NCBI GenBank assembly: GCA_035460505.1
Contig: DATHWP010000091.1
Coordinates: 14,554 to 78,553, forward strand
Length of the DNA: 64,000 bases
Origin: Methyloradius sp.
GTDB lineage: Bacteria > Pseudomonadota > Gammaproteobacteria > Burkholderiales > Methylophilaceae
Direction of reading: 5' to 3'
Position 1 is the first letter of the stretch, and each line of letters opens with the position of its first letter. Made by a program: the position numbers and the translations under genes. This document shows positions 7,541 to 28,811 of this stretch, piece by piece. The notes beneath the pieces are model-generated. The model worked only from the letters and a program-made list of their open reading frames with translations. It made no database searches and was not told where the DNA came from.

Positions 7541-7909
7541 ATGCGCAAACATCCTTCTCTGACGGGGCTAAATTTGAGAGCAAACGCAAGTAAAGCAGTG
7601 CATGCCGTGCTGAATAAAGTGATCCACCAGGCTGATCATAGTCACGAAACATTAGCCGAGCATGCCCAGCAGATAGGGACTTCAGCCAAGCACAGGATGA
7701 GACTGGTTGCCAAAGGGTTCGCTCAGGAAATACAAAATTCCATCATGCATGTGCGAGATACAAGTAAACAAATGACTGGCCAAATGACAAGTAAGGCAAA
7801 GCGCAAAATTGCATTGCTGGCCAGCCGCAAACTGAATGAAATAGCCAACAGAATTGAACAAAAAGCCAATGCCATTCATATCAGCGCCACTAAATCTGCC
7901 AGTCGTTAA
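7541..7909 (+). CDS. Hypothetical basic helical protein (possibly phasin-like) upstream of the ABC1 kinase
   Basis: 122-aa Ala/Lys/His-rich ORF ending 33 bp before the kinase gene on the same strand. Confidence 0.5.
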   Translation: MRKHPSLTGLNLRANASKAVHAVLNKVIHQADHSHETLAEHAQQIGTSAKHRMRLVAKGFAQEIQNSIMHVRDTSKQMTGQMTSKAKRKIALLASRKLNEIANRIEQKANAIHISATKSASR

Positions 7910-7942
7910 TAGCGCAGATAACCCCAAAAGCAACGCATACTG

Positions 7943-9622
7943 ATGATCCGTCAAACCATTTCTGTCTTTCGTGACTTAGGCCGCATACGCGAGATTACTG
8001 GCGTGCTCATGCGCTATGGTTGGGATGATATTGCCAAGCGTCTGGGCAAGCGCAGCTTTATTGGCTGGGCTGGCAAAGCACTAAGCGCCGATGTACCGCC
8101 AGAGATCATGAATCTGCCGCCAGAGGTGAGAGTACGTTTGGCGATTCAAGATTTAGGGCCCACTTTCGTAAAACTTGGACAAGTGCTTGCGACCAGGCCA
8201 GATATTTTCCCGCCGCACTGGATTACTGAGTTCTCTAAGCTACAAGATCAAGTACCACCTGTACCTTTTGAAGAGTTATTGCCCGAACTTGAAAAAGCGC
8301 TGGGTAAATCGCCTTTTGAAGTATTCAAGGATTTCCAGGAAGTACCAATCGCTGGTGCTTCAATTGCCCAAGTGCACCGTGCGAAATTGCAAGATGGCAC
8401 GGATGTCGTGGTTAAAATTCGTCGTCCAAATGTGCAAGAAAGTATCGATGCCGATTTACGCCTGTTGTCTCATTTAGGTCGGTTGATTGAATCTGAAGTC
8501 GAGGAAGTCAGGCGTTTTCAACCAGGCAAGATCATTGCCCAATTTTCAAAATCGCTCAAACGTGAGTTGGATTTAGGGCTTGAAGGCAGAAGCACCGAAC
8601 GCTTTTCCAGAAATTTTGCAACCGATGAAAATGTAAAGTTTGCCCAAATCTATTGGGATTACTGTGCAGATGGCGTGCTGGTGATGGAGCACATTGATGG
8701 CATTTCTGGCCATGCGATTGAAGAAGCAAGAATGGCTGGTCTGGATTTAAAACTGCTGGCAGAGCTCGGTGCAAAAACTGTATTGAAAATGGTGCTGATC
8801 GATGGGTTCTTTCATGCAGACCCACACCCAGGCAACCTTTTCTATCTGCCTGGAAACCGTATTGCGATTATTGACTGCGGCATGGTGGGGCGCATTACGC
8901 TCGATAGACGCGGTGAAATTGCAGATTTGTTGGCGGCACTGGTTTCACGAGATATCGATGCCTTACGCGATATTCTGATTGTGTGGTCGGGTGATGCCAA
9001 TGTGGACGAAGCTAAGCTGGGCGCAGATGTGGATGAATTCATCTGCAACTACGATAATGCACCACTCAAGCATGTGCGCTTTAGTGCTTTGCTGAACGAC
9101 CTCACAACCATTATGCGCGAGAATCATCTTGCTGTTCCGCCAGATTTAACCATGTTGTTCAAGGCCTTAATTACCTTAGAAGGGCTTGGTCGCCAGCTAG
9201 ATCCAGACTTTCAGATCGTTAGTTTTTTAACCCCGTTCGTTAAAAAAATCATTATTGATCGCTATATGCCAAGCGCCTTGTTTAAGCGCGGTAAGCGCGG
9301 TGCAAACAGCCTGTTTGATTCGATCACTGGTTTGCCTGGCGATGTATCCATGTTGCTGCGAGAGGCAGGCCGTGGCAGGCTTAAAATCAATCTTGATCTC
9401 AAGCGGCTCGATCACTTTGGGCACCAACTTGATCACAGCACCAATAGACTCACCATGGCCATGATAGTGGCCGCCCTGATTATCGGTTCTTCTATTGTTA
9501 TGACAGTGAAAGGTGGGCCTACTATACTTGGATTGCCAGCGTTTGGTTTTATCGGATTTTTCTTTGCATTTTGTATTGGGTTTTTGCTGGTGATCTCGAT
9601 TTGGCGATCAGGTCGAGACTGA
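7943..9622 (+). CDS. AarF/ABC1/UbiB atypical kinase family protein with C-terminal membrane helices
   Basis: LGPTFVKLGQ, ASIAQVHRA, VVVK, FFHADPHPGN, IDCGMVG. Confidence 0.92.
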   Translation: MIRQTISVFRDLGRIREITGVLMRYGWDDIAKRLGKRSFIGWAGKALSADVPPEIMNLPPEVRVRLAIQDLGPTFVKLGQVLATRPDIFPPHWITEFSKLQDQVPPVPFEELLPELEKALGKSPFEVFKDFQEVPIAGASIAQVHRAKLQDGTDVVVKIRRPNVQESIDADLRLLSHLGRLIESEVEEVRRFQPGKIIAQFSKSLKRELDLGLEGRSTERFSRNFATDENVKFAQIYWDYCADGVLVMEHIDGISGHAIEEARMAGLDLKLLAELGAKTVLKMVLIDGFFHADPHPGNLFYLPGNRIAIIDCGMVGRITLDRRGEIADLLAALVSRDIDALRDILIVWSGDANVDEAKLGADVDEFICNYDNAPLKHVRFSALLNDLTTIMRENHLAVPPDLTMLFKALITLEGLGRQLDPDFQIVSFLTPFVKKIIIDRYMPSALFKRGKRGANSLFDSITGLPGDVSMLLREAGRGRLKINLDLKRLDHFGHQLDHSTNRLTMAMIVAALIIGSSIVMTVKGGPTILGLPAFGFIGFFFAFCIGFLLVISIWRSGRD

Positions 9623-9642: not shown

Positions 9643-9691
9643 GGGATTGTTTTGGGGCAGACCAATAATTAACCCGCACCAAATGAGTGCG
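9643..9691 (+). promoter_or_regulatory. Tandem NtrC-type enhancer boxes; the strong box lies inside a 15-bp inverted repeat (9665-9701) that may also terminate the kinase gene
   Basis: CGCAC-CAAATGA-GTGCG (9675-9691) fits GCAC-N7-GTGC; weaker site ending TGGGGCA (9643-9659) starts 32 bp upstream. Confidence 0.65.
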
Positions 9692-9753
9692 GGTTAATTA
9701 TATGGCAAACTTGTTTTTGCCTAAGATGATGATTAATTTTGATATTTAACTAC

Positions 9754-9768
9754 TGGCATGCGCTTTGC
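9754..9768 (+). promoter_or_regulatory. Sigma54 (-24/-12) promoter of the ATP-grasp/alpha-E/Anbu operon
   Basis: TGGCATGCGCTTTGC = GG-N10-GC, close to consensus TGGCACG-N4-TTGC. Confidence 0.8.
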
Positions 9769-9781
9769 GTGGAACTAGGCT

Positions 9782-11206
9782 ATGGATACTGCAAATAAAC
9801 GCCCTTTTGATGAAATGCAGCTAGCCAACGATACGGTGCGTGACATTTACGCGCTCTATGCTGAATGGCTGCGCGATGTTCCACTTGCTCAACTTGAGAG
9901 CAAACGGTTAGAAGCCGAACTCCTGTTCCGTCGAGTTGGTATTACCTTCAACGTGTATGGTGAAACCGCAGGTGCCGAGCGCCTAATTCCATTTGATGTG
10001 GTGCCGCGAATACTGGCAGCCGATGAATGGAGCAAGCTTTCTGATGGCGCCATCCAGCGCGTCAAAGCGCTCAATATGTTCCTGCATGATATTTATCATG
10101 ATCAGGAAATCATCAAGGCTGGCATTGTGCCCGCTTCAGTATTGACCAATTCGCAGTACCGCCCCGAGATGCAAGGCATTGACGTGCCAAACAATATTTA
10201 CGCGCATATCGCGGGTATTGATATTGTACGCACTGGCGAGAATGATTTTTACGTGCTGGAAGACAATCTACGTACACCTTCAGGTGTTTCGTACATGCTT
10301 GAAGACCGCAAGATGATGATGCGGCTTTTCCCTGATTTGTTCAGACGCTATTCCATCGCCCCAGTTGAGCATTATCCACAAGTGCTGCTGAATAACCTGC
10401 GTGCTGTGGCTCAACCTGGCGTAACAGACCCCGTGGTTGCGCTGATGACCCCAGGCGCCTATAACAGCGCCTATTTTGAGCATGCTTTCTTAGCCCAGCA
10501 AATGGGCATTGAACTGGTTGAAGGGCAAGATCTATTCGTCCGTGATAATGCCGTGTATATGCGCACGACTGAAGGCCCTAAAAAAGTCGATGTCATCTAT
10601 CGTCGTATTGATGATGATTTCATTGATCCGCTGGCGTTTAAAGCAGACTCTATGCTGGGCGTTCCAGGCTTGTTATCTGTCTATCAAAATGGTGGCGTCA
10701 CGCTTGCTAACGCTGTTGGTACAGGGGTGGCAGATGACAAGGCTATCTACATTTATGTGCCAGAGATGATTCGTTATTACTTGGGTGAAGAACCGATACT
10801 AGCTAATGTGCCGACTTATCAGTTGAGCAAAGAAGACGATTTGAAGTATGTGTTGGCGCACTTGCCTGAACTGGTCGTGAAAGAAGTGCAAGGCTCAGGC
10901 GGTTACGGCATGCTGGTTGGTCCTGCAGCCACCAAAGCTGAGATTAAAGAATTTACCTTGCGTATAGTTTCCAACCCGTCCAACTATATTGCCCAACCTA
11001 CATTGGCTCTATCTACCTGCCCTACCTTGGTCGAGCAGGGACTTGCGCCACGCCATGTTGATCTGCGTCCGTTTGTGTTGTCTGGCAAGGCCGTCACCCT
11101 TGTGCCTGGCGCGCTGTGCCGTGTGGCCTTGCGTGATGGTTCGCTGGTGGTTAATTCATCACAGGGTGGTGGTACTAAAGATACATGGGTGCTTAACCAT
11201 GCCTAA
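9782..11206 (+). CDS. Circularly permuted type 2 ATP-grasp protein
   Basis: GITFNVY, ERLIPFD, VLEDNLRTPSGVSY, SAYFEH, DVIYRRIDD, GSGGYG, RHVDLRPF, VVNSSQGGGTKDTWV. Confidence 0.93.
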   Translation: MDTANKRPFDEMQLANDTVRDIYALYAEWLRDVPLAQLESKRLEAELLFRRVGITFNVYGETAGAERLIPFDVVPRILAADEWSKLSDGAIQRVKALNMFLHDIYHDQEIIKAGIVPASVLTNSQYRPEMQGIDVPNNIYAHIAGIDIVRTGENDFYVLEDNLRTPSGVSYMLEDRKMMMRLFPDLFRRYSIAPVEHYPQVLLNNLRAVAQPGVTDPVVALMTPGAYNSAYFEHAFLAQQMGIELVEGQDLFVRDNAVYMRTTEGPKKVDVIYRRIDDDFIDPLAFKADSMLGVPGLLSVYQNGGVTLANAVGTGVADDKAIYIYVPEMIRYYLGEEPILANVPTYQLSKEDDLKYVLAHLPELVVKEVQGSGGYGMLVGPAATKAEIKEFTLRIVSNPSNYIAQPTLALSTCPTLVEQGLAPRHVDLRPFVLSGKAVTLVPGALCRVALRDGSLVVNSSQGGGTKDTWVLNHA

Positions 11207-11235
11207 ATGCTTATGTATGTGTAGAGGTTTTAATA

Positions 11236-12183
11236 ATGTTAAGTAGAACCGCTGATCACCTGTACTGGATGGCGCGCTATATTGAGCGCGCTGAGAATAT
11301 GGCGCGCGTGCTTGATGTCACAGCGAATATGTCACTGATTACCAACCCTGCAGATCAGACTGAAGCTGCTTTGTGGCGCCCAGCTTTGCAGATTTGTGGC
11401 GATGTTGTCGCATATGAAGAAGCTTATGGCGAATGCACTGCTGCTAATGTCATCAAGTTTCTGACCATGGATGACAATAACCCATCAAGCATCTACAGCA
11501 CACTTCGCAGCGCACGTGAGAATGCGCGTGCGGTGCGTGTTGCCATGACCTCTGAAACTTGGGAAAGCATCAACACGCTTTGGTTGGAATTCAGTCAATT
11601 TATAGGTGCGGACTTTTCAAAAAATGGCCTTCATGAGTTCTGTGAATGGGTGAAAGCACGCTCTCATCTGTTCCGTGGCGTTTCTTTCGGTACGATGTTG
11701 CGCGATGATTCTTTCCGCTTTTTGCGTTTGGGCTCGTTCATTGAACGTGCTGACAACACTGCCAGAATCCTGGATGTGAAATACCATATTTTGCAGCCGA
11801 TAGATGAAGAAACTGGTGGCGTGGATTACTACGCCTGGAGTGCGGTGTTGCGCTCTGTCTCTTCGTTCCAGGCCTATCAAAAAGTGTTCAGAGATACCAT
11901 TGACCCACAAAAAGTAGCTGAGATGATGGTATTGAGAAGTGATATGCCACGCTCTTTGCATGCTTGCTATGAGGAGATAGTGTCTATCGTCCAACAGCTT
12001 TCGGATCGTCGTCCAACAGAATGTAAGCGACTCTCAGGCCAGCTACTTTCATCATTGCGCTACGGCAAAATGGAAACCATTTTCGAGCAGGGTCTGCATG
12101 AGTTTCTGGCTGATTTTCTGAGAAGTAACAATAGGCTCGGTGGCGAGATTCAACGTACTTTTTTCAACGCTGCTGAAGTTTAG
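11236..12183 (+). CDS. Alpha-E domain protein
   Basis: MLSRTADHLYWMARYIERAENMAR, ARENAR, IERADNTARILDVKY, PRS. Confidence 0.93.
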   Translation: MLSRTADHLYWMARYIERAENMARVLDVTANMSLITNPADQTEAALWRPALQICGDVVAYEEAYGECTAANVIKFLTMDDNNPSSIYSTLRSARENARAVRVAMTSETWESINTLWLEFSQFIGADFSKNGLHEFCEWVKARSHLFRGVSFGTMLRDDSFRFLRLGSFIERADNTARILDVKYHILQPIDEETGGVDYYAWSAVLRSVSSFQAYQKVFRDTIDPQKVAEMMVLRSDMPRSLHACYEEIVSIVQQLSDRRPTECKRLSGQLLSSLRYGKMETIFEQGLHEFLADFLRSNNRLGGEIQRTFFNAAEV

Positions 12184-12198
12184 AGGCTCGATTTTCGC
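12184..12198 (+). promoter_or_regulatory. Possible internal sigma54 promoter upstream of the small QQQ ORF
   Basis: AGGCTCGATTTTCGC = GG-N10-GC, starting immediately after the alpha-E stop codon. Confidence 0.35.
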
Positions 12199-12262
12199 GA
12201 TTGAGTCATCAAGCAGTATTCACTGCCATTTGCTAAAAAATAGGCTCAGCTAATTCAAAGTA

Positions 12263-12430
12263 ATGACCATCAAACCTGAAATCCTGTCTAATCCAATTCC
12301 AAAAAAGACTGTGCAGCAGCCTGATACTAGGGATACACTGCCAGAAAAGCAAATACAAACACGCGATCAGCCTGCGTATCCAAACAGCAAAGTCAAAATA
12401 CGTCAGGCAGAAGAAGCGCAACAGCAGTAA
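12263..12430 (+). CDS. Small 55-aa Gln/Lys/Pro-rich peptide ending in QQQ (absent from the ORF track)
   Basis: Manual translation MTIKPEILSNPIPKKTVQQPDTRDTLPEKQIQTRDQPAYPNSKVKIRQAEEAQQQ*; fills most of a 290-bp gap on the operon strand; Shine-Dalgarno weak. Confidence 0.55.
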   Translation: MTIKPEILSNPIPKKTVQQPDTRDTLPEKQIQTRDQPAYPNSKVKIRQAEEAQQQ

Positions 12431-12473
12431 ACATACATTCACAAGTTATTCACGCATTTAAAAGTTACCCAAT

Positions 12474-13706
12474 ATGAACGCAACTACTATTGATTCATTA
12501 CGCTTTACCCGTCACGGTGATAAACAAAACTCGGCTTTTTTTGAAGAATATCTAGTCCGTCTTCTCGAAGAGCGCGACCAACTCGGCCTCACCGCGCTGA
12601 TACACGAGATTGACGCCTTGATGATCACGGTGGACCCCGGGCATTCAATCCAGTACATCGCCGAACTGTCATTGATGACTTCATACCATTATCTGGTGAC
12701 CCTAGAGAGTGAGTCACACTGGACGCATATCTTGCGCATTGATCTTAATTCACCAGACATTTTGTTGCGTGAGGTGAAAGACCCGAATTTGCGTGGTATT
12801 TTCCGTTCATTGAACGAGGTTTATCCAGTTGGCGCCAAGAAACCTAATAGCCGCTACATGGGTGAAATCATCCGCGTGAGTAATTTGCACGATGTGGTCA
12901 AGCTTCAGCAAGCGCGTGAATTCCGTTTTTTCTCACAAGATGAAGTACGTAAAATGGAATTTCCTGGCAACATTGCGGTGAGTAAGCCTTCACCTTATAC
13001 CCATAATGTCGTTGGTTATCTTGAACGTAAACCTAGTGAGCTTCGTGTCTACGCACTTGGTATGAGCGTGATTAATCCAGAGGTACAAGCTGCCTACGAA
13101 GCTTCGAAAACGCTGCAGAAAAAGCTGAATTTTGATGAATTGTTGTTGCCGATCGATCACTTGGCAACGCGTGTCTATAGCCAAAATCGTGAAGTGGCAA
13201 TCTTGGAGTATTTGTCATTGACCAGTTACCACTTCTGGGGCGCCTACAATATTTTTGACCAGAACTCTTCGACTAACGTGACCAAGAGCGTGCATGATTT
13301 ACCGGAATCAAAAAGCCCAGCCAAGGTATTTACCGCCAACAACACGCCATATTTCGTCAGCCATTTAGAACATCTACCTTCGCCTACGGAAACATTCGTC
13401 CGTAACTATGGGCCACGCTTGCACCACATGGCGATTGCGGTGAAAGATGGCGAGACCGCAGGGCAGGAGAATATCGAATTCGTGGTCAAGGCCATTGCTG
13501 ACCAAGGTAAAGGTTTCTTGCTTGATGTGATTGGTTCTAAAGAAGAAGGCTTGAAACAGATATTCTCAAATGCTTCGGAACACTCATCACTGATTATTGA
13601 ATACGTGCAACGCTTTGGCGATTTTGACGGTTTCTTTACTCAAGATAACGTGGCTAAGCTGACTGAAGCTGCAGGCCATGAAGAATCACTCAATTACGCT
13701 GTGTAG
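12474..13706 (+). CDS. Divergent HPPD-like (two-domain VOC) putative Fe(II) enzyme of unknown function
   Basis: IDHLA (H229), SPTETFVRNYGPRLHHMAI (H318), LKQIFS, IIEYVQR (E376), then GF..N: same order as the motifs of 4-hydroxyphenylpyruvate dioxygenase. Confidence 0.65.
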   Translation: MNATTIDSLRFTRHGDKQNSAFFEEYLVRLLEERDQLGLTALIHEIDALMITVDPGHSIQYIAELSLMTSYHYLVTLESESHWTHILRIDLNSPDILLREVKDPNLRGIFRSLNEVYPVGAKKPNSRYMGEIIRVSNLHDVVKLQQAREFRFFSQDEVRKMEFPGNIAVSKPSPYTHNVVGYLERKPSELRVYALGMSVINPEVQAAYEASKTLQKKLNFDELLLPIDHLATRVYSQNREVAILEYLSLTSYHFWGAYNIFDQNSSTNVTKSVHDLPESKSPAKVFTANNTPYFVSHLEHLPSPTETFVRNYGPRLHHMAIAVKDGETAGQENIEFVVKAIADQGKGFLLDVIGSKEEGLKQIFSNASEHSSLIIEYVQRFGDFDGFFTQDNVAKLTEAAGHEESLNYAV

Positions 13707-13729
13707 ACTAAACAAAAAGTAAAAATATC

Positions 13730-14467
13730 ATGACGTATTGTGTCGCTGTTTTATTACCTGAAGGCCTAGTGCTTGCCTCTGATACCCGCACCAATGCTGG
13801 TGTTGATCAGGTTGCCGTATTTCCAAAAATGCATGTGTTTGAAGTGCGCGGCGAAAGAGTGATTACACTGCTCACATCAGGCAATCTCGCTATCACCCAA
13901 TCGGTAGTTAACCGCTTACGTGAGGCAGTGCGGACGGGCGCTGATAAAACCCTGGAAACAGCCGCTAGCATGTTTGAGGCCGCCACACTGGTGGGTGATG
14001 AAATTCGTGCTGCATTTGAGCGCGATGCATCACACCTTAAAAACCAGAATTCAGAATTTAGTGCCAATATCCTGCTCTCAGGCCAAATCAAAGGCGAAGC
14101 GCCGCGTCTGTTTCATATTTACTCAGCAGGCAATTTTATTGAGAGTAGCGATGAGACTCCGTATTTTCAGATTGGTGAAACCAAGTACGGTAAACCGATT
14201 ATTGATCGCGTAGTGAACCACAAAAGCGACATGATGGATGCAGTGAAATGTGTATTGATTTCGTTTGATTCAACTATCCGCAGTAACTTGTCGGTCGCTG
14301 CGCCTATAGACCTTATGCTGTACCACACTGATAGTTTCAATGCTGATTCACGTCAACGCATTACAGAAAAAGACGAGTATTACACCACTATCCGCCAAGG
14401 TTGGTCTGATGGTTTGAAGAAGGTCTTTAGTGCTTTGCCAAACCCAACTTGGACATTTGGTAAGTAA
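13730..14467 (+). CDS. Anbu proteasome-type (Ntn-hydrolase) peptidase
   Basis: N-terminal MTYC (Thr nucleophile), ASDTRTNAGVD, SGNLAITQ, QIGETKYGKPIIDR, DSTIRSNLSV. Confidence 0.93.
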   Translation: MTYCVAVLLPEGLVLASDTRTNAGVDQVAVFPKMHVFEVRGERVITLLTSGNLAITQSVVNRLREAVRTGADKTLETAASMFEAATLVGDEIRAAFERDASHLKNQNSEFSANILLSGQIKGEAPRLFHIYSAGNFIESSDETPYFQIGETKYGKPIIDRVVNHKSDMMDAVKCVLISFDSTIRSNLSVAAPIDLMLYHTDSFNADSRQRITEKDEYYTTIRQGWSDGLKKVFSALPNPTWTFGK

Positions 14468-14482
14468 GTTTGGCCTTAATGC

Positions 14483-14516
14483 ATGTGCGATAAGCGTGTG
14501 ATGACTTATCGCACAT
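14483..14516. terminator. Hairpin between convergent genes, probable terminator
   Basis: ATGTGCGATAAG-N10-CTTATCGCACAT. Confidence 0.6.
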
Positions 14517-14524
14517 CACATTAT

Positions 14525-21839: not shown

Positions 21840-22718
21840 TTAACTATTGATCAGCTTTACCGAGACCTCAACATCCAGCGTATGCGAGCCACCACCCAGC
21901 ACAATACCGTGCATGGGTGATACATCACTGAAATCACGGCCCCAGGCTACGGTGATATGTTCGTTTTGCACGAGGCAATTATTGGTGGGGTCAAAATCTA
22001 TCCAGCCATAAACTGGGCAATAAACTGATACCCAGGCGTGCGATGCATCAGCACCCACCATGTCTTCCTGGCCTGGTGCGCGATGTGTGAGTATGTAGCC
22101 GCTGATATAGCGGCAAGATAATCCAAGGCTACGTAGGCAGCCTATCATCAGGTGTGAAAAGTCTTGGCACACACCGTGTTTGTTTTCTAACACTTCGCTT
22201 AACGGGGTGTCGATATGCGTGGCATCTGGGTCAAAATCGAACTCATTGTAGATGCGTTGCGTGAGGTCAAACGCCGCTTGTAGGAGTGATTTGTTGGGGC
22301 TGAAACTTAAGCGTGCGTAGTCAGCAAGTGCATCGCTGCAAGCCACATAAGGCGAGCCAAATAAAAAGGCCTGCGCATCCTGGTTTTGTCCATTCAGCAT
22401 ACGCAGATTGTCTCTGACTGTTTCCCAAGCTGGGCTTTGATACAGATCACCAAGTTTAAGCCGTGGCATCAGCTGCACTTCAAAACTTGAATTAACAGCA
22501 AGCTCGCGATGTGGCGTGACCATGGCGAAATAATCAGTGATATTGCCAAAGTAATCGTGTTTTTTTAATGATTCATTGGGTGGTGGTGTGATCTCAAGCG
22601 TATGGGTCAGGCAGGTCTGCGCATAAAAATCACGCGGTGACATGTGCAGCAATTGCTGCGAGAGCATTACTGGACCTTCATAGTAGTAGTGGGTGTTGTG
22701 TAAAACGCGATAACGCAT
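21840..22718 (-). CDS. Transglutaminase family protein (Bact_transglu_N plus core)
   Basis: Cys-His-Asp triad motifs GVCQDFSH, ASHAW, FDPTN; GRDFSDV. Confidence 0.93.
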   Translation of the reverse strand: MRYRVLHNTHYYYEGPVMLSQQLLHMSPRDFYAQTCLTHTLEITPPPNESLKKHDYFGNITDYFAMVTPHRELAVNSSFEVQLMPRLKLGDLYQSPAWETVRDNLRMLNGQNQDAQAFLFGSPYVACSDALADYARLSFSPNKSLLQAAFDLTQRIYNEFDFDPDATHIDTPLSEVLENKHGVCQDFSHLMIGCLRSLGLSCRYISGYILTHRAPGQEDMVGADASHAWVSVYCPVYGWIDFDPTNNCLVQNEHITVAWGRDFSDVSPMHGIVLGGGSHTLDVEVSVKLINS

Positions 22719-22733
22719 GGGTATTATTTGAGC

Positions 22734-25343
22734 CTAAAAATTGAATATCTCTTGCTGCGATATTTCTTGGGCAGAGAGTTCTTGAAGTTGCCCAGAGTAA
22801 CTGAAAAAACGGTGACTGAGGCTGTCAGACAGGGCAATGCTGGCATTGTAGGTTTCATCCAGCCAAGCAATCAACTCTGTATTGCCTTGGCGGAACACCA
22901 CGTCAGGGTCAAATAGGCGCAATGCGGCTAAACGGCCAATAAACTGGCCTTCGCCGCCGCTGCCGTAGGTGGCCGTGATTTGGGCGAGATATTTAATCAG
23001 GCCTTTGAGCTGGAACACCATGGCGTTTGGGTTGTTCTCATCCATCAGGATTAAGTCTAACATCGGCAGCCACTCGGCTTGCGAGGAATATCGATAGCGG
23101 TAGGTGACAATGCTATCAGTTAGTTCTAGCACCCAATCCAAATTGCTCTCTGCGGGCATTTTCAATGCACGGCTTAATAGGGTACACAAAAACTGCAAGC
23201 GCTCGATACGACGGCCAATCGACATGAAGCGCCAGCCTTGGTCACGCGTCATGCCATCCAGCGTGAAGCCTGATAATGTGACTAGGGATGCCGTGGTTTC
23301 ATCTAGTATCAATAAGCCCTCGCTGAGTGTGGCTGATTCAGGGCTGTCGGTAAAACGCTGCGCCATCTGGTTAATGTTGCGCCAGTTGTCGCTGGAAAGT
23401 CGTTCGCGCAGGTTAAATGCGAGGGTCTGGAAACCTTGGATATGGCTGGCCAAGCTTGGCGAATCAGATGAAAAAATGCCCGAAACCAGCAGTGACTCGA
23501 TTAACTCATCACTCAGTTCGGGTTCTGCCAAAGAGCCTAATGCTTCACTAGATTTAATCCGTGGATTTTCTTCGTTATCCGCAGACATCAGCCCATACCA
23601 GTTGCACAGCCCTTGTATGGTTGGCCATTCCATTGCGCGATGCTCGGTGGTGAATTCCATGAAACAGTGGATCGCTGTGCGTAGCAATCTCGAAAAATGG
23701 TGATTGCGTACCGCATAGCGACCAAACCAGAACAGGTTTTCTACCATGCGGCTAGAAAGATTGGCATTGCCTTTAACCAAGTCGCGGCTAGATGATGTCT
23801 TGCGCAACAGGCTGCGGTAGCTAGTCACATAAGGCGCTGTTACCCAGGTATCTTTGCTGGTGCCACCATTTTGCATGGTGATCACACGTTCGTCTTGACC
23901 GCTAGCGACACGCGTTAACCCACCCGGCATGACCACGTAACCTTGTGGTGTGGCGCAGGCGTAAAGGCGTAGACCTACAGCGAGTGAGCCAAGTGCTGGT
24001 TCATCTTTGCCAGTCTCTGCATTCCAAACGGGGGCTTGCGAAATCTTTACCTGCTCTTGCGCCACATAGTTTTGTGGATTGGCACAGAGTTTGGCAATTA
24101 GCGCGTCACGCTCAGCGTGGTTCAGGTCTTCACCAAAAATTGGTTGCTCGTTGATTTGTGGGAATGCTGGTTTTATGACTAAGGTATGCAGATTTTCAAT
24201 CACCGTTTCAAGCGCATGCGGCTCACCACACCACCATGTGGCGACGGATGGCATCAATAGTGATTCGCCAAGCAAACGGCGGCAGAGGCTAGGTAAAAAT
24301 CCGAGCAAAGCACCAGTTTGCAGCAAATTAGAACCTAAGCTATTAGCAATCAGTACATTACCGCGGCGTGCTACTTCAGTAAGGCCTGCGATACCGAGTA
24401 CGGAAATGGAATTGAGTTCCAGCGGGTCGCAGAAGTCATCATCCAGACGCCGCAATATGGTGTGTACTGGTTTAAGGCCAGACAGTGTTTTTAGCCAGAC
24501 TACACCATTGCGCACGGTGAGGTCATTACCCTGTACCAGTGGAAAGCCCAGATAGCCTGCGAGATAAGATTGCTCGTGGTAGGTTTCGTTGTAAGGGCCT
24601 GGGGTGAGCAGTACTGTGAGTGGTTGCTCACCATCGCCCAACGCTTTTATTTTTGGGTTACTGCGAGACTGATTAGCCGCACAGACTCTACCCCAATAGG
24701 CAAGGCTGTCGCGCATAGTGGCAAAAAATCCACTCAGGCGCTGTACGTTCAGATCACGAAATAACTCGGGGAATGCGCTGGAGATAATCAGGCGGTTTTC
24801 CAGCGCATAACCTGCGCCAGAGGGCGCTTGTGTACGATCTGCCACTACCCACCAGCGGCCATCGGGCGAGCGTGCCAAATCAACTGCATAAGTGTGTAGA
24901 GAGTAATTATCTGGGTACTTAATGCCATGACAAGGCCGCAAAAATCCAGCATGGCCATGTATTAGGGCTGGCGGAAGAATGCCTTCTTTTAGCAGGTTTT
25001 GGTCACCATACACATCGTTAAGTATGGCGTTAAGTAAGGTCGCTCGTTGGATAACGGCGGCTTCTATCCCTGCCCATTCTTCATGCGGTAGGATAAATGG
25101 AAGTACATCAAGTCCCCAAGGCCGCTGCAAGCCTTTTGTATCTGCATACACATTGTAGGTGACACCATTTTCACGGACTTGGCGTTGGATAGATTCTACG
25201 CGCTCACGCATTTGCGCAGGACTCACTTGCTCAAGCGTGCTAATCAGCTCTTGCCAGTGCGGGCGAGGTTTGCCTGATGACTCAAGCAACTCATCGTGGC
25301 GGTCTTGATGGCCAGGATAACTATTCAAAATCGATTCCAACAT
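22734..25343 (-). CDS. Circularly permuted type 2 ATP-grasp / alpha-E fusion protein
   Basis: GVTYNVY, ADRTQAPSGAGYALENR, ILRRLDDDFCDPLEL, MPGGLTRV, SKDTWV, then SRMVENLFWFGRY and GRRIERL; start at ATG 25343 inferred (track start 25370). Confidence 0.9.
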   Translation of the reverse strand: MLESILNSYPGHQDRHDELLESSGKPRPHWQELISTLEQVSPAQMRERVESIQRQVRENGVTYNVYADTKGLQRPWGLDVLPFILPHEEWAGIEAAVIQRATLLNAILNDVYGDQNLLKEGILPPALIHGHAGFLRPCHGIKYPDNYSLHTYAVDLARSPDGRWWVVADRTQAPSGAGYALENRLIISSAFPELFRDLNVQRLSGFFATMRDSLAYWGRVCAANQSRSNPKIKALGDGEQPLTVLLTPGPYNETYHEQSYLAGYLGFPLVQGNDLTVRNGVVWLKTLSGLKPVHTILRRLDDDFCDPLELNSISVLGIAGLTEVARRGNVLIANSLGSNLLQTGALLGFLPSLCRRLLGESLLMPSVATWWCGEPHALETVIENLHTLVIKPAFPQINEQPIFGEDLNHAERDALIAKLCANPQNYVAQEQVKISQAPVWNAETGKDEPALGSLAVGLRLYACATPQGYVVMPGGLTRVASGQDERVITMQNGGTSKDTWVTAPYVTSYRSLLRKTSSSRDLVKGNANLSSRMVENLFWFGRYAVRNHHFSRLLRTAIHCFMEFTTEHRAMEWPTIQGLCNWYGLMSADNEENPRIKSSEALGSLAEPELSDELIESLLVSGIFSSDSPSLASHIQGFQTLAFNLRERLSSDNWRNINQMAQRFTDSPESATLSEGLLILDETTASLVTLSGFTLDGMTRDQGWRFMSIGRRIERLQFLCTLLSRALKMPAESNLDWVLELTDSIVTYRYRYSSQAEWLPMLDLILMDENNPNAMVFQLKGLIKYLAQITATYGSGGEGQFIGRLAALRLFDPDVVFRQGNTELIAWLDETYNASIALSDSLSHRFFSYSGQLQELSAQEISQQEIFNF

Positions 25344-25465
25344 TCCTCCGACCACCTTTACTACCCTCAATGCTCAGTCCATGAACTCTTTAGAATTCTG
25401 GCTATATTGATAGAAGAGCTTTTATATTTGTTTTATCCGTCAGACAAGCGCCTGAAAGTATTAAA

Positions 25466-25498
25466 TGCATATAGGTTAAAAAAGTTAACCTATATGCA
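25466..25498. repeat. Perfect 14-bp inverted repeat inside the operon
   Basis: TGCATATAGGTTAA-AAAAG-TTAACCTATATGCA. Confidence 0.7.
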
Positions 25499-25514
25499 AC
25501 TTTAATTACCTATA

Positions 25515-28500
25515 TTAAACATCTTGCCAGCGCAGGTCTAGCGTAAAAGGAAAGCGGGGATTCCGTTGTTCTTCTTCAATTTGCCTTGCGCCTGGCGTGT
25601 GACCATGCCCCCAGAAGCGTGTAAAGCGACGTGCTTCTGCCTCTAGCGCATTGACGGGGAAGGTCGCGTAATTGCGGCCACCAGGATGCGAGACATGATA
25701 AGTACAGCCACCAATTGCGCGGCCACTCCAGGTGTCGACCAAGTCAAATACGAGAGGGGCATGCGGTTTGATGGTTGGGTGTAGGGCAGACCAAGGATCC
25801 CATGCGCGGAATCTCACGCCAGCCACATATTCACCAGCAACGCCTGTTGGTTGTAGCGGCAACGGACGGCCATTACAGGTGACGATGTGGCGCGAGTCAG
25901 TCAGGCCGCGCACTCGCAATTGCATGCGTTCGACGGACGAATCTACATAGCGTGCAGTACCACCGCCTGCCATTTCTTCGCCCAGCACATTCCATGGCTC
26001 AATCGCCTGCCTGAGTTCAAGCTCCACGCCTTCATAAGCCACTGTGCCATACCGAGGAAAGCGGAATTCGATGAATGGGTCAAACCAGCGCTTTTCAAAT
26101 TTGTAGCCAGCGCGATTTAAATCCTTCACTACATCGGCCATATCTTGTGCAATGAAGTGGGGCAGCATCCAGCGGTCATGTAGCTCAGTACCCCAATGGA
26201 TGAGCTTGCCTTGATATGGCTCGCGCCAGAAACGTGCAACGAGTGCACGCAGTAGCAGCATCTGCAGCAAGCTCATGCGTGCATGCGGTGGCATTTCGAA
26301 GGCGCGGAATTCAACCAGGCCAAGACGGCCAGTCGGGCCATCTGGCGAATAAAGCTTATCAATCGAGAATTCAGCGCGGTGGGTGTTGCCAGTCAGGTCA
26401 ACGAGTAGGTTACGTAGCAACCTATCAACCAGCCACGGCCGTTCGCTTTCTGCGGTATCTGGCAGTACTTTATCCATTTGCTGAAAAGCAATCGCCAGTT
26501 CGTAAAGATTGTCATCACGTGCCTCATCTACCCGTGGTGATTGGCTGGTAGGTCCGATGAACGTGCCTGAAAACAGGTAAGACAGTGCAGGGTGATTTTG
26601 CCAATAACTGATCAGGCTTTTTAGCACATCAGGGCGGCGTAGCATCGGGCTATCTGCAGCAGTTGCGCCACCTAGGGTGGCATGATTGCCGCCACCAGTC
26701 CCAGTATGGCGACCATCCAGCATGAACTTTTCTGTACCGAGCCGCGTTTGGCGGGCTTCTTCATAGAGGATGGTCATCTTATCGACCAGTTCACGCCAGG
26801 TACTGGATGGATGAATGTTCACTTCAATCACGCCAGGGTCAGGTGTGACACTCAGCACCTTGATGCGCGCATCGCGCGGCGGGGTGTAGCCTTCAATCCA
26901 TAATTTAAGCTTGAGTTCAGCAGCGGTTTGTTCAACCGTGGCAATCAGCGCTAGATAATCTTCAATGCGCACAACGGGTGGCATAAACACATGCAGGCGA
27001 CCATCGCGCACTTGCACACACAGTGCTGTAAACACAACTTCGCGCGGCAGCGGTTTTTCCTTGAGTATTCTTTTGGCAACTATGCCTGGCGTAGTGGCAT
27101 CTGGTAATTCAGCCAGTTTTGCAAACGGGTCAACAGGAAACGCAGGGTCCACATCTTCAGGTAGCAGCTCTGGGAGCGAGGCCAGCGGTAGTCGCAACCC
27201 CATAGGTGAGTCCCCAGCCAGCAAATACAGGTGTTCGCGCTTAAGTGGCCACTTACTTGTGAGCCAGTTGCTGACATTCTTTTTGCGAGTTTCCTCGGGT
27301 TTGATCGGCATGACATAGCCAACAGTTTCATTCAGGCCAGTCTCCAGAAGCTTTGCCAGCCTGCGGCGTTCTTCGCTATCTTTTAAATTCGCTTTGAGCG
27401 GATCCACATTTTCTGGCAGGCGTAATTCCATCACCGATTGCTGCAGCACATCCTCATAAGCAGGAATCAGGCAGGCAGTTGGCAGCCCTAAATTAGTCGC
27501 GAGTTTTGCCGAGAATTGCTCGGCATGCGCTGCAGTATATTGATCTGATATTTTTTCATCGGAAAAAAGTGATGCGTCTTGCCATATTGGCTTACCGTCT
27601 ACTCTCCAGTAGATATTGATTGCCCAGCGCGGCAATGGCTCGCCTGGGTACCATTTACCTTGCCCATAATGCAGTAAACCGCCAGGCGCAAAATGTTGCT
27701 TAAGCTTGAGTGAAAGCTCGCCTGCCATCTCGCGTTTTTTAGCACCGTGGGCGGCTACATTCCACTCGGCACCTTCCATATCGTCAATCGAGACAAAAGT
27801 CGGCTCACCGCCTTGCGTCAGCCGTACATCTTGTTTCTTGAGATCAGCATCTACTTTCTGGCCAAGCTTATCGATTCTCAGCCAGTCAGCTTCGCTGTAA
27901 GGCTTGGTGACGCGTGGGTCTTCGTGAATCCGAGTGACTGACATCTCATGGGTGAAAATCACCTCGGCTCTATCTGACATGCCTGTCACAGGCGCAGCAG
28001 AAGATGGGGTTGCAGTGCAGGCCAGCGGAATATGGCCTTCGCCTGCCATCAGGCCAGAGGTTGCATCCAGACCAATCCAGCCTGCACCTGGAATATAAAC
28101 TTCAGCCCAGGCATGCAAATCAGTGAAATCTACTGCTGTGCCGCTTGGACCATCCAAAGATTTGATGTCAGCCGCTAATTGGATTAAATAGCCAGACACG
28201 AAGCGCGCGGCCAGCCCAAAGTGGCGCATGATCTGCACCAACAGCCATGCGCTGTCACGGCAAGAGCCGGTGCGGTTGGTCAGGGTTTCTTCCGGCGTTT
28301 GCACACCTGGCTCCATGCGTACCAGATAGCCGATATCACCCTGTACCATCTGGTTAAGTGCGACCAGAAAATCACCAATACCAAGGTTTTGGCTAGAAAA
28401 TTTCTGCTCTGCCGCATTCAGCCAGTTCTGTAGTAAGGGGCCAATCGGGTCAGCCTTTAAATATGGGCTGAGTTCATGTTCGAGTTGTTCTGTGTACTTG

Positions 28501-28811
28501 AATGGATAAGTCTCGGCATATTTTTCAACGAAGAAATCAAACGGGTTGATGACTGTCATGTCTGCAACCAGATCGACCGTGAATTCAAGCTCACGCACCT
28601 TTTCAGGGAATACAAAGCGCGCGATGTAATTGCCGTAAGGGTCTTGCTGCCAGTTAATAAAATGCTTTTCGGGAATGACTGAAAGTGAATACGACAATAT
28701 GGGCGTGCGCGCATGCGCTGCGGGCTTTAACCTGACTTCATGCGGTGAGAGGCTGACTAGGCGATCAAACTGGTAACTGGTTTTATGGTGCAACGCGACA
28801 CGAATCGCCAT
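25515..28811 (-). CDS. Large transglutaminase / DUF2126 (putative amidoligase) fusion protein
   Basis: WQQDPYGN, GSCRDSAW, DLHAW, LDATSG; LTQGGEPTFVS, TPDPGVIEVN, GTGGGNH, GNTHRAEF, VEFRAFEMPPH. Confidence 0.92.
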   Translation of the reverse strand: MAIRVALHHKTSYQFDRLVSLSPHEVRLKPAAHARTPILSYSLSVIPEKHFINWQQDPYGNYIARFVFPEKVRELEFTVDLVADMTVINPFDFFVEKYAETYPFKYTEQLEHELSPYLKADPIGPLLQNWLNAAEQKFSSQNLGIGDFLVALNQMVQGDIGYLVRMEPGVQTPEETLTNRTGSCRDSAWLLVQIMRHFGLAARFVSGYLIQLAADIKSLDGPSGTAVDFTDLHAWAEVYIPGAGWIGLDATSGLMAGEGHIPLACTATPSSAAPVTGMSDRAEVIFTHEMSVTRIHEDPRVTKPYSEADWLRIDKLGQKVDADLKKQDVRLTQGGEPTFVSIDDMEGAEWNVAAHGAKKREMAGELSLKLKQHFAPGGLLHYGQGKWYPGEPLPRWAINIYWRVDGKPIWQDASLFSDEKISDQYTAAHAEQFSAKLATNLGLPTACLIPAYEDVLQQSVMELRLPENVDPLKANLKDSEERRRLAKLLETGLNETVGYVMPIKPEETRKKNVSNWLTSKWPLKREHLYLLAGDSPMGLRLPLASLPELLPEDVDPAFPVDPFAKLAELPDATTPGIVAKRILKEKPLPREVVFTALCVQVRDGRLHVFMPPVVRIEDYLALIATVEQTAAELKLKLWIEGYTPPRDARIKVLSVTPDPGVIEVNIHPSSTWRELVDKMTILYEEARQTRLGTEKFMLDGRHTGTGGGNHATLGGATAADSPMLRRPDVLKSLISYWQNHPALSYLFSGTFIGPTSQSPRVDEARDDNLYELAIAFQQMDKVLPDTAESERPWLVDRLLRNLLVDLTGNTHRAEFSIDKLYSPDGPTGRLGLVEFRAFEMPPHARMSLLQMLLLRALVARFWREPYQGKLIHWGTELHDRWMLPHFIAQDMADVVKDLNRAGYKFEKRWFDPFIEFRFPRYGTVAYEGVELELRQAIEPWNVLGEEMAGGGTARYVDSSVERMQLRVRGLTDSRHIVTCNGRPLPLQPTGVAGEYVAGVRFRAWDPWSALHPTIKPHAPLVFDLVDTWSGRAIGGCTYHVSHPGGRNYATFPVNALEAEARRFTRFWGHGHTPGARQIEEEQRNPRFPFTLDLRWQDV

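Follow-up and report, generated by a model that had tools for sequence, protein, structure and literature searches.

The canonical Anbu operon encodes a circularly permuted ATP-grasp protein (COG2308), an alpha-E protein (COG2307), a transglutaminase (TGase, COG1305) and Anbu, in that order, as in Yersinia bercovieri, Pseudomonas aeruginosa and Pseudomonas putida PP_2685-2688 (Valas and Bourne 2008). The operon is widespread and strongly nitrogen-induced, and the available text of PMC6376114 reports no substrate for it: Anbu lacks peptidase activity, the Y. bercovieri ATP-grasp protein only releases phosphate from ATP, and the hypotheses published there and in the available text of PMC5666114 are unconfirmed. 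A variant of this operon occurs in a 64,000-nucleotide stretch of DNA (the window) from Methyloradius sp. of the Methylophilaceae (contig DATHWP010000091.1, positions 14,554 to 78,553). It shares with the canonical operon three genes, their order, the intact catalytic residues of Anbu and a nitrogen-type promoter; it differs in that the third-place TGase is replaced by a micro-ORF (open reading frame) encoding a Gln-ended peptide of 55 residues, and in an added gene for a 410-residue protein, here X410, predicted to have the fold of 4-hydroxyphenylpyruvate dioxygenase (HPPD). From sequence we tentatively read the locus as a nitrogen-starvation ligase/hydrolase system with a Gln-ended tail as carrier and an accessory 2-oxo-diacid oxygenase.

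The preliminary description of this DNA had listed the ATP-grasp, alpha-E, peptide, X410 and Anbu genes, all five of which are confirmed in place and on the forward strand (Table 1), and had assigned the peptide and X410 jointly to the TGase slot. Only the first half of that assignment stands. Among 160 fetched loci, together with the window and the complete genome G001, there are 66 in which alpha-E lies no more than 2 kb upstream of X410; Anbu follows X410 immediately in 20 of these. X410 is an addition rather than a TGase replacement, because 50 of the 66 hold an intact TGase between alpha-E and X410, and the arrangement typical of the family is ATP-grasp, then alpha-E, TGase and X410, with or without Anbu. 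Every TGase directly upstream of X410 (53/53) has a Gln-Gln (QQ) C-terminus. A family sample chosen independently of X410 (91 of 96 alpha-E-positive genomes fetched, 90 scored) shows a slot TGase in 86 of 90 loci, 84 of the 86 ending in QQ, and lacks it in four. The genomes left out of this sample (G015, G513, G534, G567, G605) all have a more distant type of alpha-E; four of them, seen as L006, L008, L009 and L079, carry X410, ATP-grasp, alpha-E and two Anbu genes in that order, and no slot TGase.

In the window, the slot is 291 nt long and holds the 55-aa ORF and no TGase. A slot-type TGase was found neither in the window's own genome (G000, 88.6% complete) nor in complete G001, where the best match reaches 40% over half the length. 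None of the small TGase paralogs of either genome ends in QQ, and a giant TGase elsewhere in the window ends in WQDV. The TGase-free slot is colinear in G001 and in locus L119, and a contig from run X4, 1,834 nt long, crosses it; it is therefore not an assembly error. The sequences show loss of the slot TGase in the window's genus.

The peptide ORF behaves like a gene. It is the only one ending in QQQ among 5,682 genome ORFs of 40 to 80 aa, and its four homologs (two of them the G001 and L119 alleles) are each 55 aa long at 71-76% identity, with KIRQ-EEAQQQ invariant across the five alleles. Ratios of nonsynonymous to synonymous substitution (dN/dS) of 0.26 (Fisher p 0.001), 0.48 (p 0.09) and 0.37 (p 0.009) indicate moderate purifying selection, as compared with 1.5 and 0.96 in other reading frames over the peptide, and the listed strain indels (12235, 12240, 12448) fall in the flanks, none within the ORF. 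By charge and hydropathy the peptide is predicted to be disordered, its mean hydropathy of 0.32-0.36 lying under the Uversky boundary of 0.42-0.44. We consider it very probable that the peptide is translated, and the suggestion in the preliminary description that it is a candidate substrate of the Anbu system has held up as a fair one.

Descent of the peptide from the 3' tail of the lost TGase is also probable, if less so than its translation. A 12-position scoring matrix built from 72 TGase tails ranks the peptide end first among 8,964 genome ORFs. A second lineage (L030/L163) has in the same slot a 57/66-aa ORF that ends in MQQSQQ and starts 1 nt past the alpha-E stop. A single clade uniting both peptide groups is rejected (p-AU 7e-10 for alpha-E in a 23-row quick tree, with which a 44-row tree agrees), and free-standing Gln-ended tails thus seem to have arisen twice, in separate lineages. 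It would appear that the peptide is a retained Gln tail of the TGase rather than a leader-core precursor.

Several results weigh against this reading. The matrix rank falls to 63 without the final two positions (QQ), and the peptide body without its last six residues has no similarity to TGases in local protein and DNA alignments with shuffles; because of this, the case for descent rests on position and end motif. Peptide dN/dS is more than ten times that of the enzymes (0.002-0.02; 0.011 for the ATP-grasp gene against G001). The slot TGase is missing from 16 X410 loci, and only five of these, from two lineages, have a peptide; of the others, three have an alpha-E ending in QSQS or QSQN, six are empty, one has Anbu in the slot and an alpha-E ending in AQVQ, and one has a decayed TGase. 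The slot of G574 is likewise empty. Outside the family, 90 Burkholderiales regions from 129 positive genomes (windows of 2.7-3.9 kb) were reduced to 85 by removal of five Methylophilaceae: a slot TGase occurs in 34 of the 85 and ends in QQ in only three of the 34, a QQ peptide in none of the 51 TGase-less loci, and a Q-ended part of any kind in only 25 of the 85. Still, 14 of 31 complete slot TGases in this sample end in Q, compared with a background of 68 in 1,441. Terminal Gln is enriched beyond the family, QQ is a trait of the Methylophilaceae, and the tail is not obligatory.

These results also bear on the idea that the peptide is a mere vestige left by deletion of the TGase gene. It would then persist only because its descent is recent or because it conveys ribosomes on to X410; the tail would serve the TGase for docking alone, and the system would have another substrate. 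The TGase has indeed disappeared from L050/L168, L052/L165, L196/L197 and G574 with no tail left behind, and is visibly decaying in L053, where remnants of both ends (L053:6752-7001) show a loss in progress. The first 14 peptide codons are near neutral (dN/dS 0.64), one of the three pairwise tests is not significant, the ORF has no clear Shine-Dalgarno sequence, and QQ ends are rare outside the Methylophilaceae. Yet the frame, the length and the QQQ end have been retained at a dS of about 0.6 while the flanks gained indels, and a second lineage has reached the same outcome with an in-frame change of length. We regard a vestige as unlikely.

The peptide is instead likely a retained tail and likely a carrier on which the ATP-grasp/alpha-E ligase would act, at the C-terminal Gln. 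ATP-grasp enzymes activate a carboxylate and then form an amide, and a flexible Gln end that is kept on the TGase, or kept alone after TGase loss, therefore fits a carrier for such a ligase. Under nitrogen starvation the ligase would use ATP to activate a carboxylate of the terminal Gln, either the alpha one or, once deamidation has taken place, the gamma one, and add an amino acid, probably Glu or Gln, which Anbu, together with TGase-like thiol hydrolases encoded 7-14 kb away, would remove again. We put the chance that such a reversible nitrogen store or recycling loop operates here at slightly below even. Among the ideas of the preliminary description, nitrogen storage or recycling is the closest to this scheme. 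A second cluster of the same system lies 7-14 kb downstream in the window (21840-28811, reverse strand); it could supply a thiol hydrolase in trans.

Pupylation (Pup, Dop, PafA and the 20S proteasome) offers a second comparison, since in both a small, disordered, Gln-ended protein accompanies an amide ligase and a protein of the proteasome-beta type. A Pup-like tag would be deamidated, joined to target lysines by the ATP-grasp protein or by the DUF2126 amidoligase of the second cluster, and taken off or recognised by Anbu. A role of the operon in protein tagging has been proposed (in the available text of PMC6376114), and small size, predicted disorder and terminal Gln do resemble Pup. However, the peptide ends in AQQQ rather than GGQ and has no Pup match in Pfam, the candidate ligase is of the ATP-grasp type, PafA (TIGR03686) was not found in G000 or G001, and 84 of 86 relatives carry the tail as part of an enzyme of 260-300 aa, which would be awkward for a tag. 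Tagging is thus rather improbable, more so than a vestige.

X410 itself carries no Pfam domain, nor does any of the 120 matches listed for it, and most of its 2,895 homologs (254 representatives at 50% clustering) are labelled "hypothetical". A model from an 86-row alignment has pLDDT 94.7 (a first model, from the shallow alignment A1, reached pLDDT 56 and was discarded). The model is that of a two-domain vicinal oxygen chelate (VOC) protein with a 2-His-1-Glu triad. It aligns over the whole chain with hydroxymandelate synthase (HMS; Z 26.5, rmsd 3.4, 294 aligned) and HPPD (Z 25.2), and in its core with rice HglS (Z 12.5). In filled alignment rows H229 is kept in 78/78, H318 in 73/77, E376 in 72/72 and R233 in 78/79; Q362, Y377 and N392 are near invariant. 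The His-His-Glu VOC assignment made in the preliminary description is thereby borne out. X410 also shares the QIF and GF--N motifs of HPPD and HMS, from which it differs in identity (13-18%), in gene context and in scoring only 14 bits, where the cut-off is 277, with the HPPD equivalog model TIGR01263.

The residue four past the first metal His distinguishes these families: Asn in HPPD, Cys in AcmP1, and Arg both in X410 (R233) and in HglS (Arg74). X410 also has His at 317, where HPPD and AcmP1 have Gln. HglS (DUF1338, PF07063) reads H70-G-A-I-R74 in 6w1g, with the same spacing as H229/R233, and shares with X410 a DH-A-R motif, the register being taken from sequence. In the available text of bioRxiv 2020.01.30.927905, Arg74 is described as essential, binding 2-oxoadipate by its distal carboxylate. 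The HglS-type Arg233 therefore leads to the prediction that X410 takes a 2-oxo-diacid, as an accessory Fe(II) oxygenase by analogy. X410 would bind Fe(II) through H229, H318 and E376 and hold the distal carboxylate with R233, and a free 2-oxo-dicarboxylate would be decarboxylated and hydroxylated as by HglS; on balance we favour this chemistry. X410 would then clear the carbon skeleton once the product of the system has yielded its nitrogen, and not modify the peptide. That the substrate is 2-oxoglutarate itself is doubtful.

Here, too, there are points on the other side. HglS takes only 2-oxoadipate, and is inactive on 2-oxoglutarate in the available text of the same preprint. X410 differs from HglS in its HPPD-type two-domain architecture and in having no lysine-catabolism context; PF07063 matches neither X410 nor anything else in its own genome, and an X410-DUF1338 profile match aligns the His and the Arg but falls short of significance (E 0.15). 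Alpha-E occurs without X410 in 24 family genomes, and X410 is thus dispensable. Nor does X410 track a lack of 2-oxoglutarate dehydrogenase: sucA is above cut-off in 26 of 55 X410 genomes, which gives bypass of that missing enzyme as a general role no support.

A metal-dependent non-oxygenase (an epimerase, isomerase or lyase resembling methylmalonyl-CoA epimerase and acting on a glutamyl-type product) would account for profile matches of X410 to methylmalonyl-CoA epimerase (E 6e-4) beside those to HPPD (E 2-7e-4), and for the retention of the motifs in distant homologs. Atlas clusters that resemble X410 at 0.92 are mostly from Thermodesulfobacteriota, which are largely anaerobes. The whole-chain fold, the triad and the C-terminal QIF, EY-QR and GF--N motifs are nevertheless of HPPD type, and the epimerase covers just one domain of X410 (Z 9.6), so that we give this alternative little credence.

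The preliminary description had seen X410 as a tailoring enzyme in the manner of peptides made by the ribosome and modified after translation (RiPPs): the ligase would extend the peptide, X410 would oxidise the added residue while still attached, and Anbu would free a small product. One unit does combine a ligase, a peptide, an Fe enzyme and a hydrolase, a QQ-ended gene is followed directly by X410 in most Methylophilaceae loci, and X410 is very highly conserved (70-95% among relatives). This claim nonetheless fares poorly. The active-site signature calls for a free 2-oxo acid, which HPPD, HMS and HglS chemistry requires, as far as the available sources describe it, and which a chain-terminal residue does not offer. 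X410 also occurs in gene orders without the peptide or any QQ-ended partner, many operons lack X410, and no transporter or other tailoring gene recurs in X410 loci. Prediction of a complex of X410, peptide and Fe, with a score of 0.06, spoke neither for nor against it. A RiPP-like or scaffold-peptide pathway has only a small chance of being correct, comparable to that of a non-oxygenase.

X410 is genomically tied to the Anbu-type system, as its neighbourhoods show. Among loci that extend 3 kb to either side of X410, a gene of the system lies within 5 kb of it in 42 of 53 from genomes and 28 of 33 from metagenomes (65/80 and 58/80 overall), against 2.9% of random places in its own genome, and the linkage spans at least four gene orders. 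The free Gln-tailed peptide, whose frequency beside these homologs the preliminary description had asked about, accompanies X410 in only 5 of 66 loci. Alpha-E is present in 54 of 55 X410 genomes (two are duplicates). The distribution of X410 is patchy, with 10 of 400 genomes in the phylum, all of one family, and 77 of 151 in its own family, where 73 have both X410 and alpha-E, four X410 only (two are fragments), 24 alpha-E only and 50 neither, related genomes in this count not being independent. A plasmid search gave no match for X410 or P0160. NCBI labels a Methylobacillus homolog (P0063) "lpg1639 family Dot/Icm T4SS effector"; lpg1639 is listed as hypothetical in the passage available, and the available effector atlas text has no mention of it. 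In these hosts the family looks metabolic, and the name probably misleads.

The operon has a conserved promoter of sigma54/NtrC type. A sigma54 motif within the window is not significant by itself (15 matches, 11 expected), but 46 of 53 related loci keep the site within 100 nt 5' of the ATP-grasp gene, against 0.11% in shuffles; the remaining seven have a TGGTA variant. The NtrC-type boxes were read with the spacing usual for NtrC. Tandem boxes had been described here; one is good, with an offset from the sigma54 site (-75 to -78) that recurs in 27 of 45 unique relatives, while the other is a half site, at whose position some relatives (e.g. L002) have fuller palindromes. The window's own genome has ntrC above cut-off and rpoN. 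Homologous clusters are sigma54/NtrC-dependent in Burkholderia cenocepacia (available text of PMC5491218) and nitrogen-induced in P. putida (available text of PMC3235984 and PMC8050072).

Table 1. Features of the Anbu-type locus and of the second cluster, in window positions.
Feature	Position	Strand	Remarks
Degenerate upstream NtrC-type box, right half only	9643..9659	+	Read by eye; 32 bp ahead of the good box
NtrC-type box, GCACCA-N3-GAGTGC	9676..9690	+	
Sigma54 -24/-12 promoter motif	9754..9769	+	
Circularly permuted ATP-grasp ligase, 474 aa	9782..11206	+	PF14403, E 1.2e-164
Alpha-E protein, 315 aa, without Gln tail	11236..12183	+	PF04168, E 4.8e-104
55-aa Pro/Gln/Lys-rich ORF, predicted disordered	12263..12430	+	Ends KIRQAEEAQQQ; slot of the QQ-ended TGase in relatives
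X410, 410 aa, unannotated, predicted HPPD/HMS-fold VOC metalloenzyme	12474..13706	+	H229/H318/E376, R233, Q362, F364, N392
Anbu, proteasome-beta-like N-terminal nucleophile hydrolase	13730..14467	+	T1/D17/K32 after Met removal; PF00227; TIGR03634, E 3e-4
Strong hairpin past Anbu, ahead of the convergent downstream gene	14477..14523		-20.3 kcal/mol, z -3.85, 0/200 shuffles
Giant TGase-DUF2126 amidoligase, 1098 aa	within 21840-28811	-	DUF2126 amidoligase at 25515-28811
ATP-grasp-alpha-E fusion of 878 aa; intact TGase of 292 aa without Gln tail	within 21840-28811	-	TGase at 21840-22718

The five genes, whose closest named homologs are from Methyloradius and other Methylophilaceae, are separated by gaps of 29, 79, 43 and 23 nt, all on one strand, and are likely co-transcribed; the hairpin after Anbu is the probable end of the unit. 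Anbu retains all of the catalytic residues named in the available text of PMC6376114 (Thr1, Asp17, Lys32/33). After the alpha-E stop, a hairpin is weak in the window (12184-12262, z -1.5) and strong in G001 (L082:4182-4274, z -3.9), and could tune downstream mRNA levels. Upstream of the operon (7541-9622, forward strand), an ORF for a helical protein of 122 aa and a gene for an ABC1/UbiB-like kinase are kept in about 13 relatives, in what looks like synteny.

Other arrangements recur among X410 loci. L006-L011, L054, L067, L079 and L080 combine X410, ATP-grasp, alpha-E, two copies of Anbu and a convergent giant TGase, the second Anbu often being Gln-rich at its end (QQNFN, QQQVL). A type III glutamine synthetase is convergent with X410 in two loci (L019:8326-10506, L036:8326-10506), and on the other side of the cluster L019, L022 and L036 encode a 1155-aa protein without a Pfam match. 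A glycogen phosphorylase-type gene lies within the X410 locus in L023, L024, L026, L050 and L070, from different groups, and a MinD/ParA-like ATPase of 231-237 aa directly 3' of X410 in the gammaproteobacterial L028, L029, L031, L032 and L034.

A literature search covering main texts outside subscription journals turned up neither a description of the peptide nor one of X410 in this operon, nor any solved function for the system; bioRxiv 2026.04.15.718621, in its available text, concerns Rv1722 and another system. To a known, unsolved system the locus would add a free-standing, apparently twice-arisen tail and an HglS-type Arg. A soluble peptide of 55 aa can be synthesized and tracked by mass spectrometry, which turns the tail hypothesis into a one-week assay free of confounding by a TGase domain. 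The active site of X410 is readable enough to yield a short list of substrates, and its product would point back to that of the ligase. More speculatively than for the carrier reading as a whole, evolution may have twice set free the built-in substrate of the system. The 55-mer would then be the minimal natural substrate of the ligase, the chemistry an undescribed reversible use of a peptide carrier (or a Pup-like tagging), and X410, as the step completing the pathway, the founder of a new 2-oxo-diacid oxygenase family.

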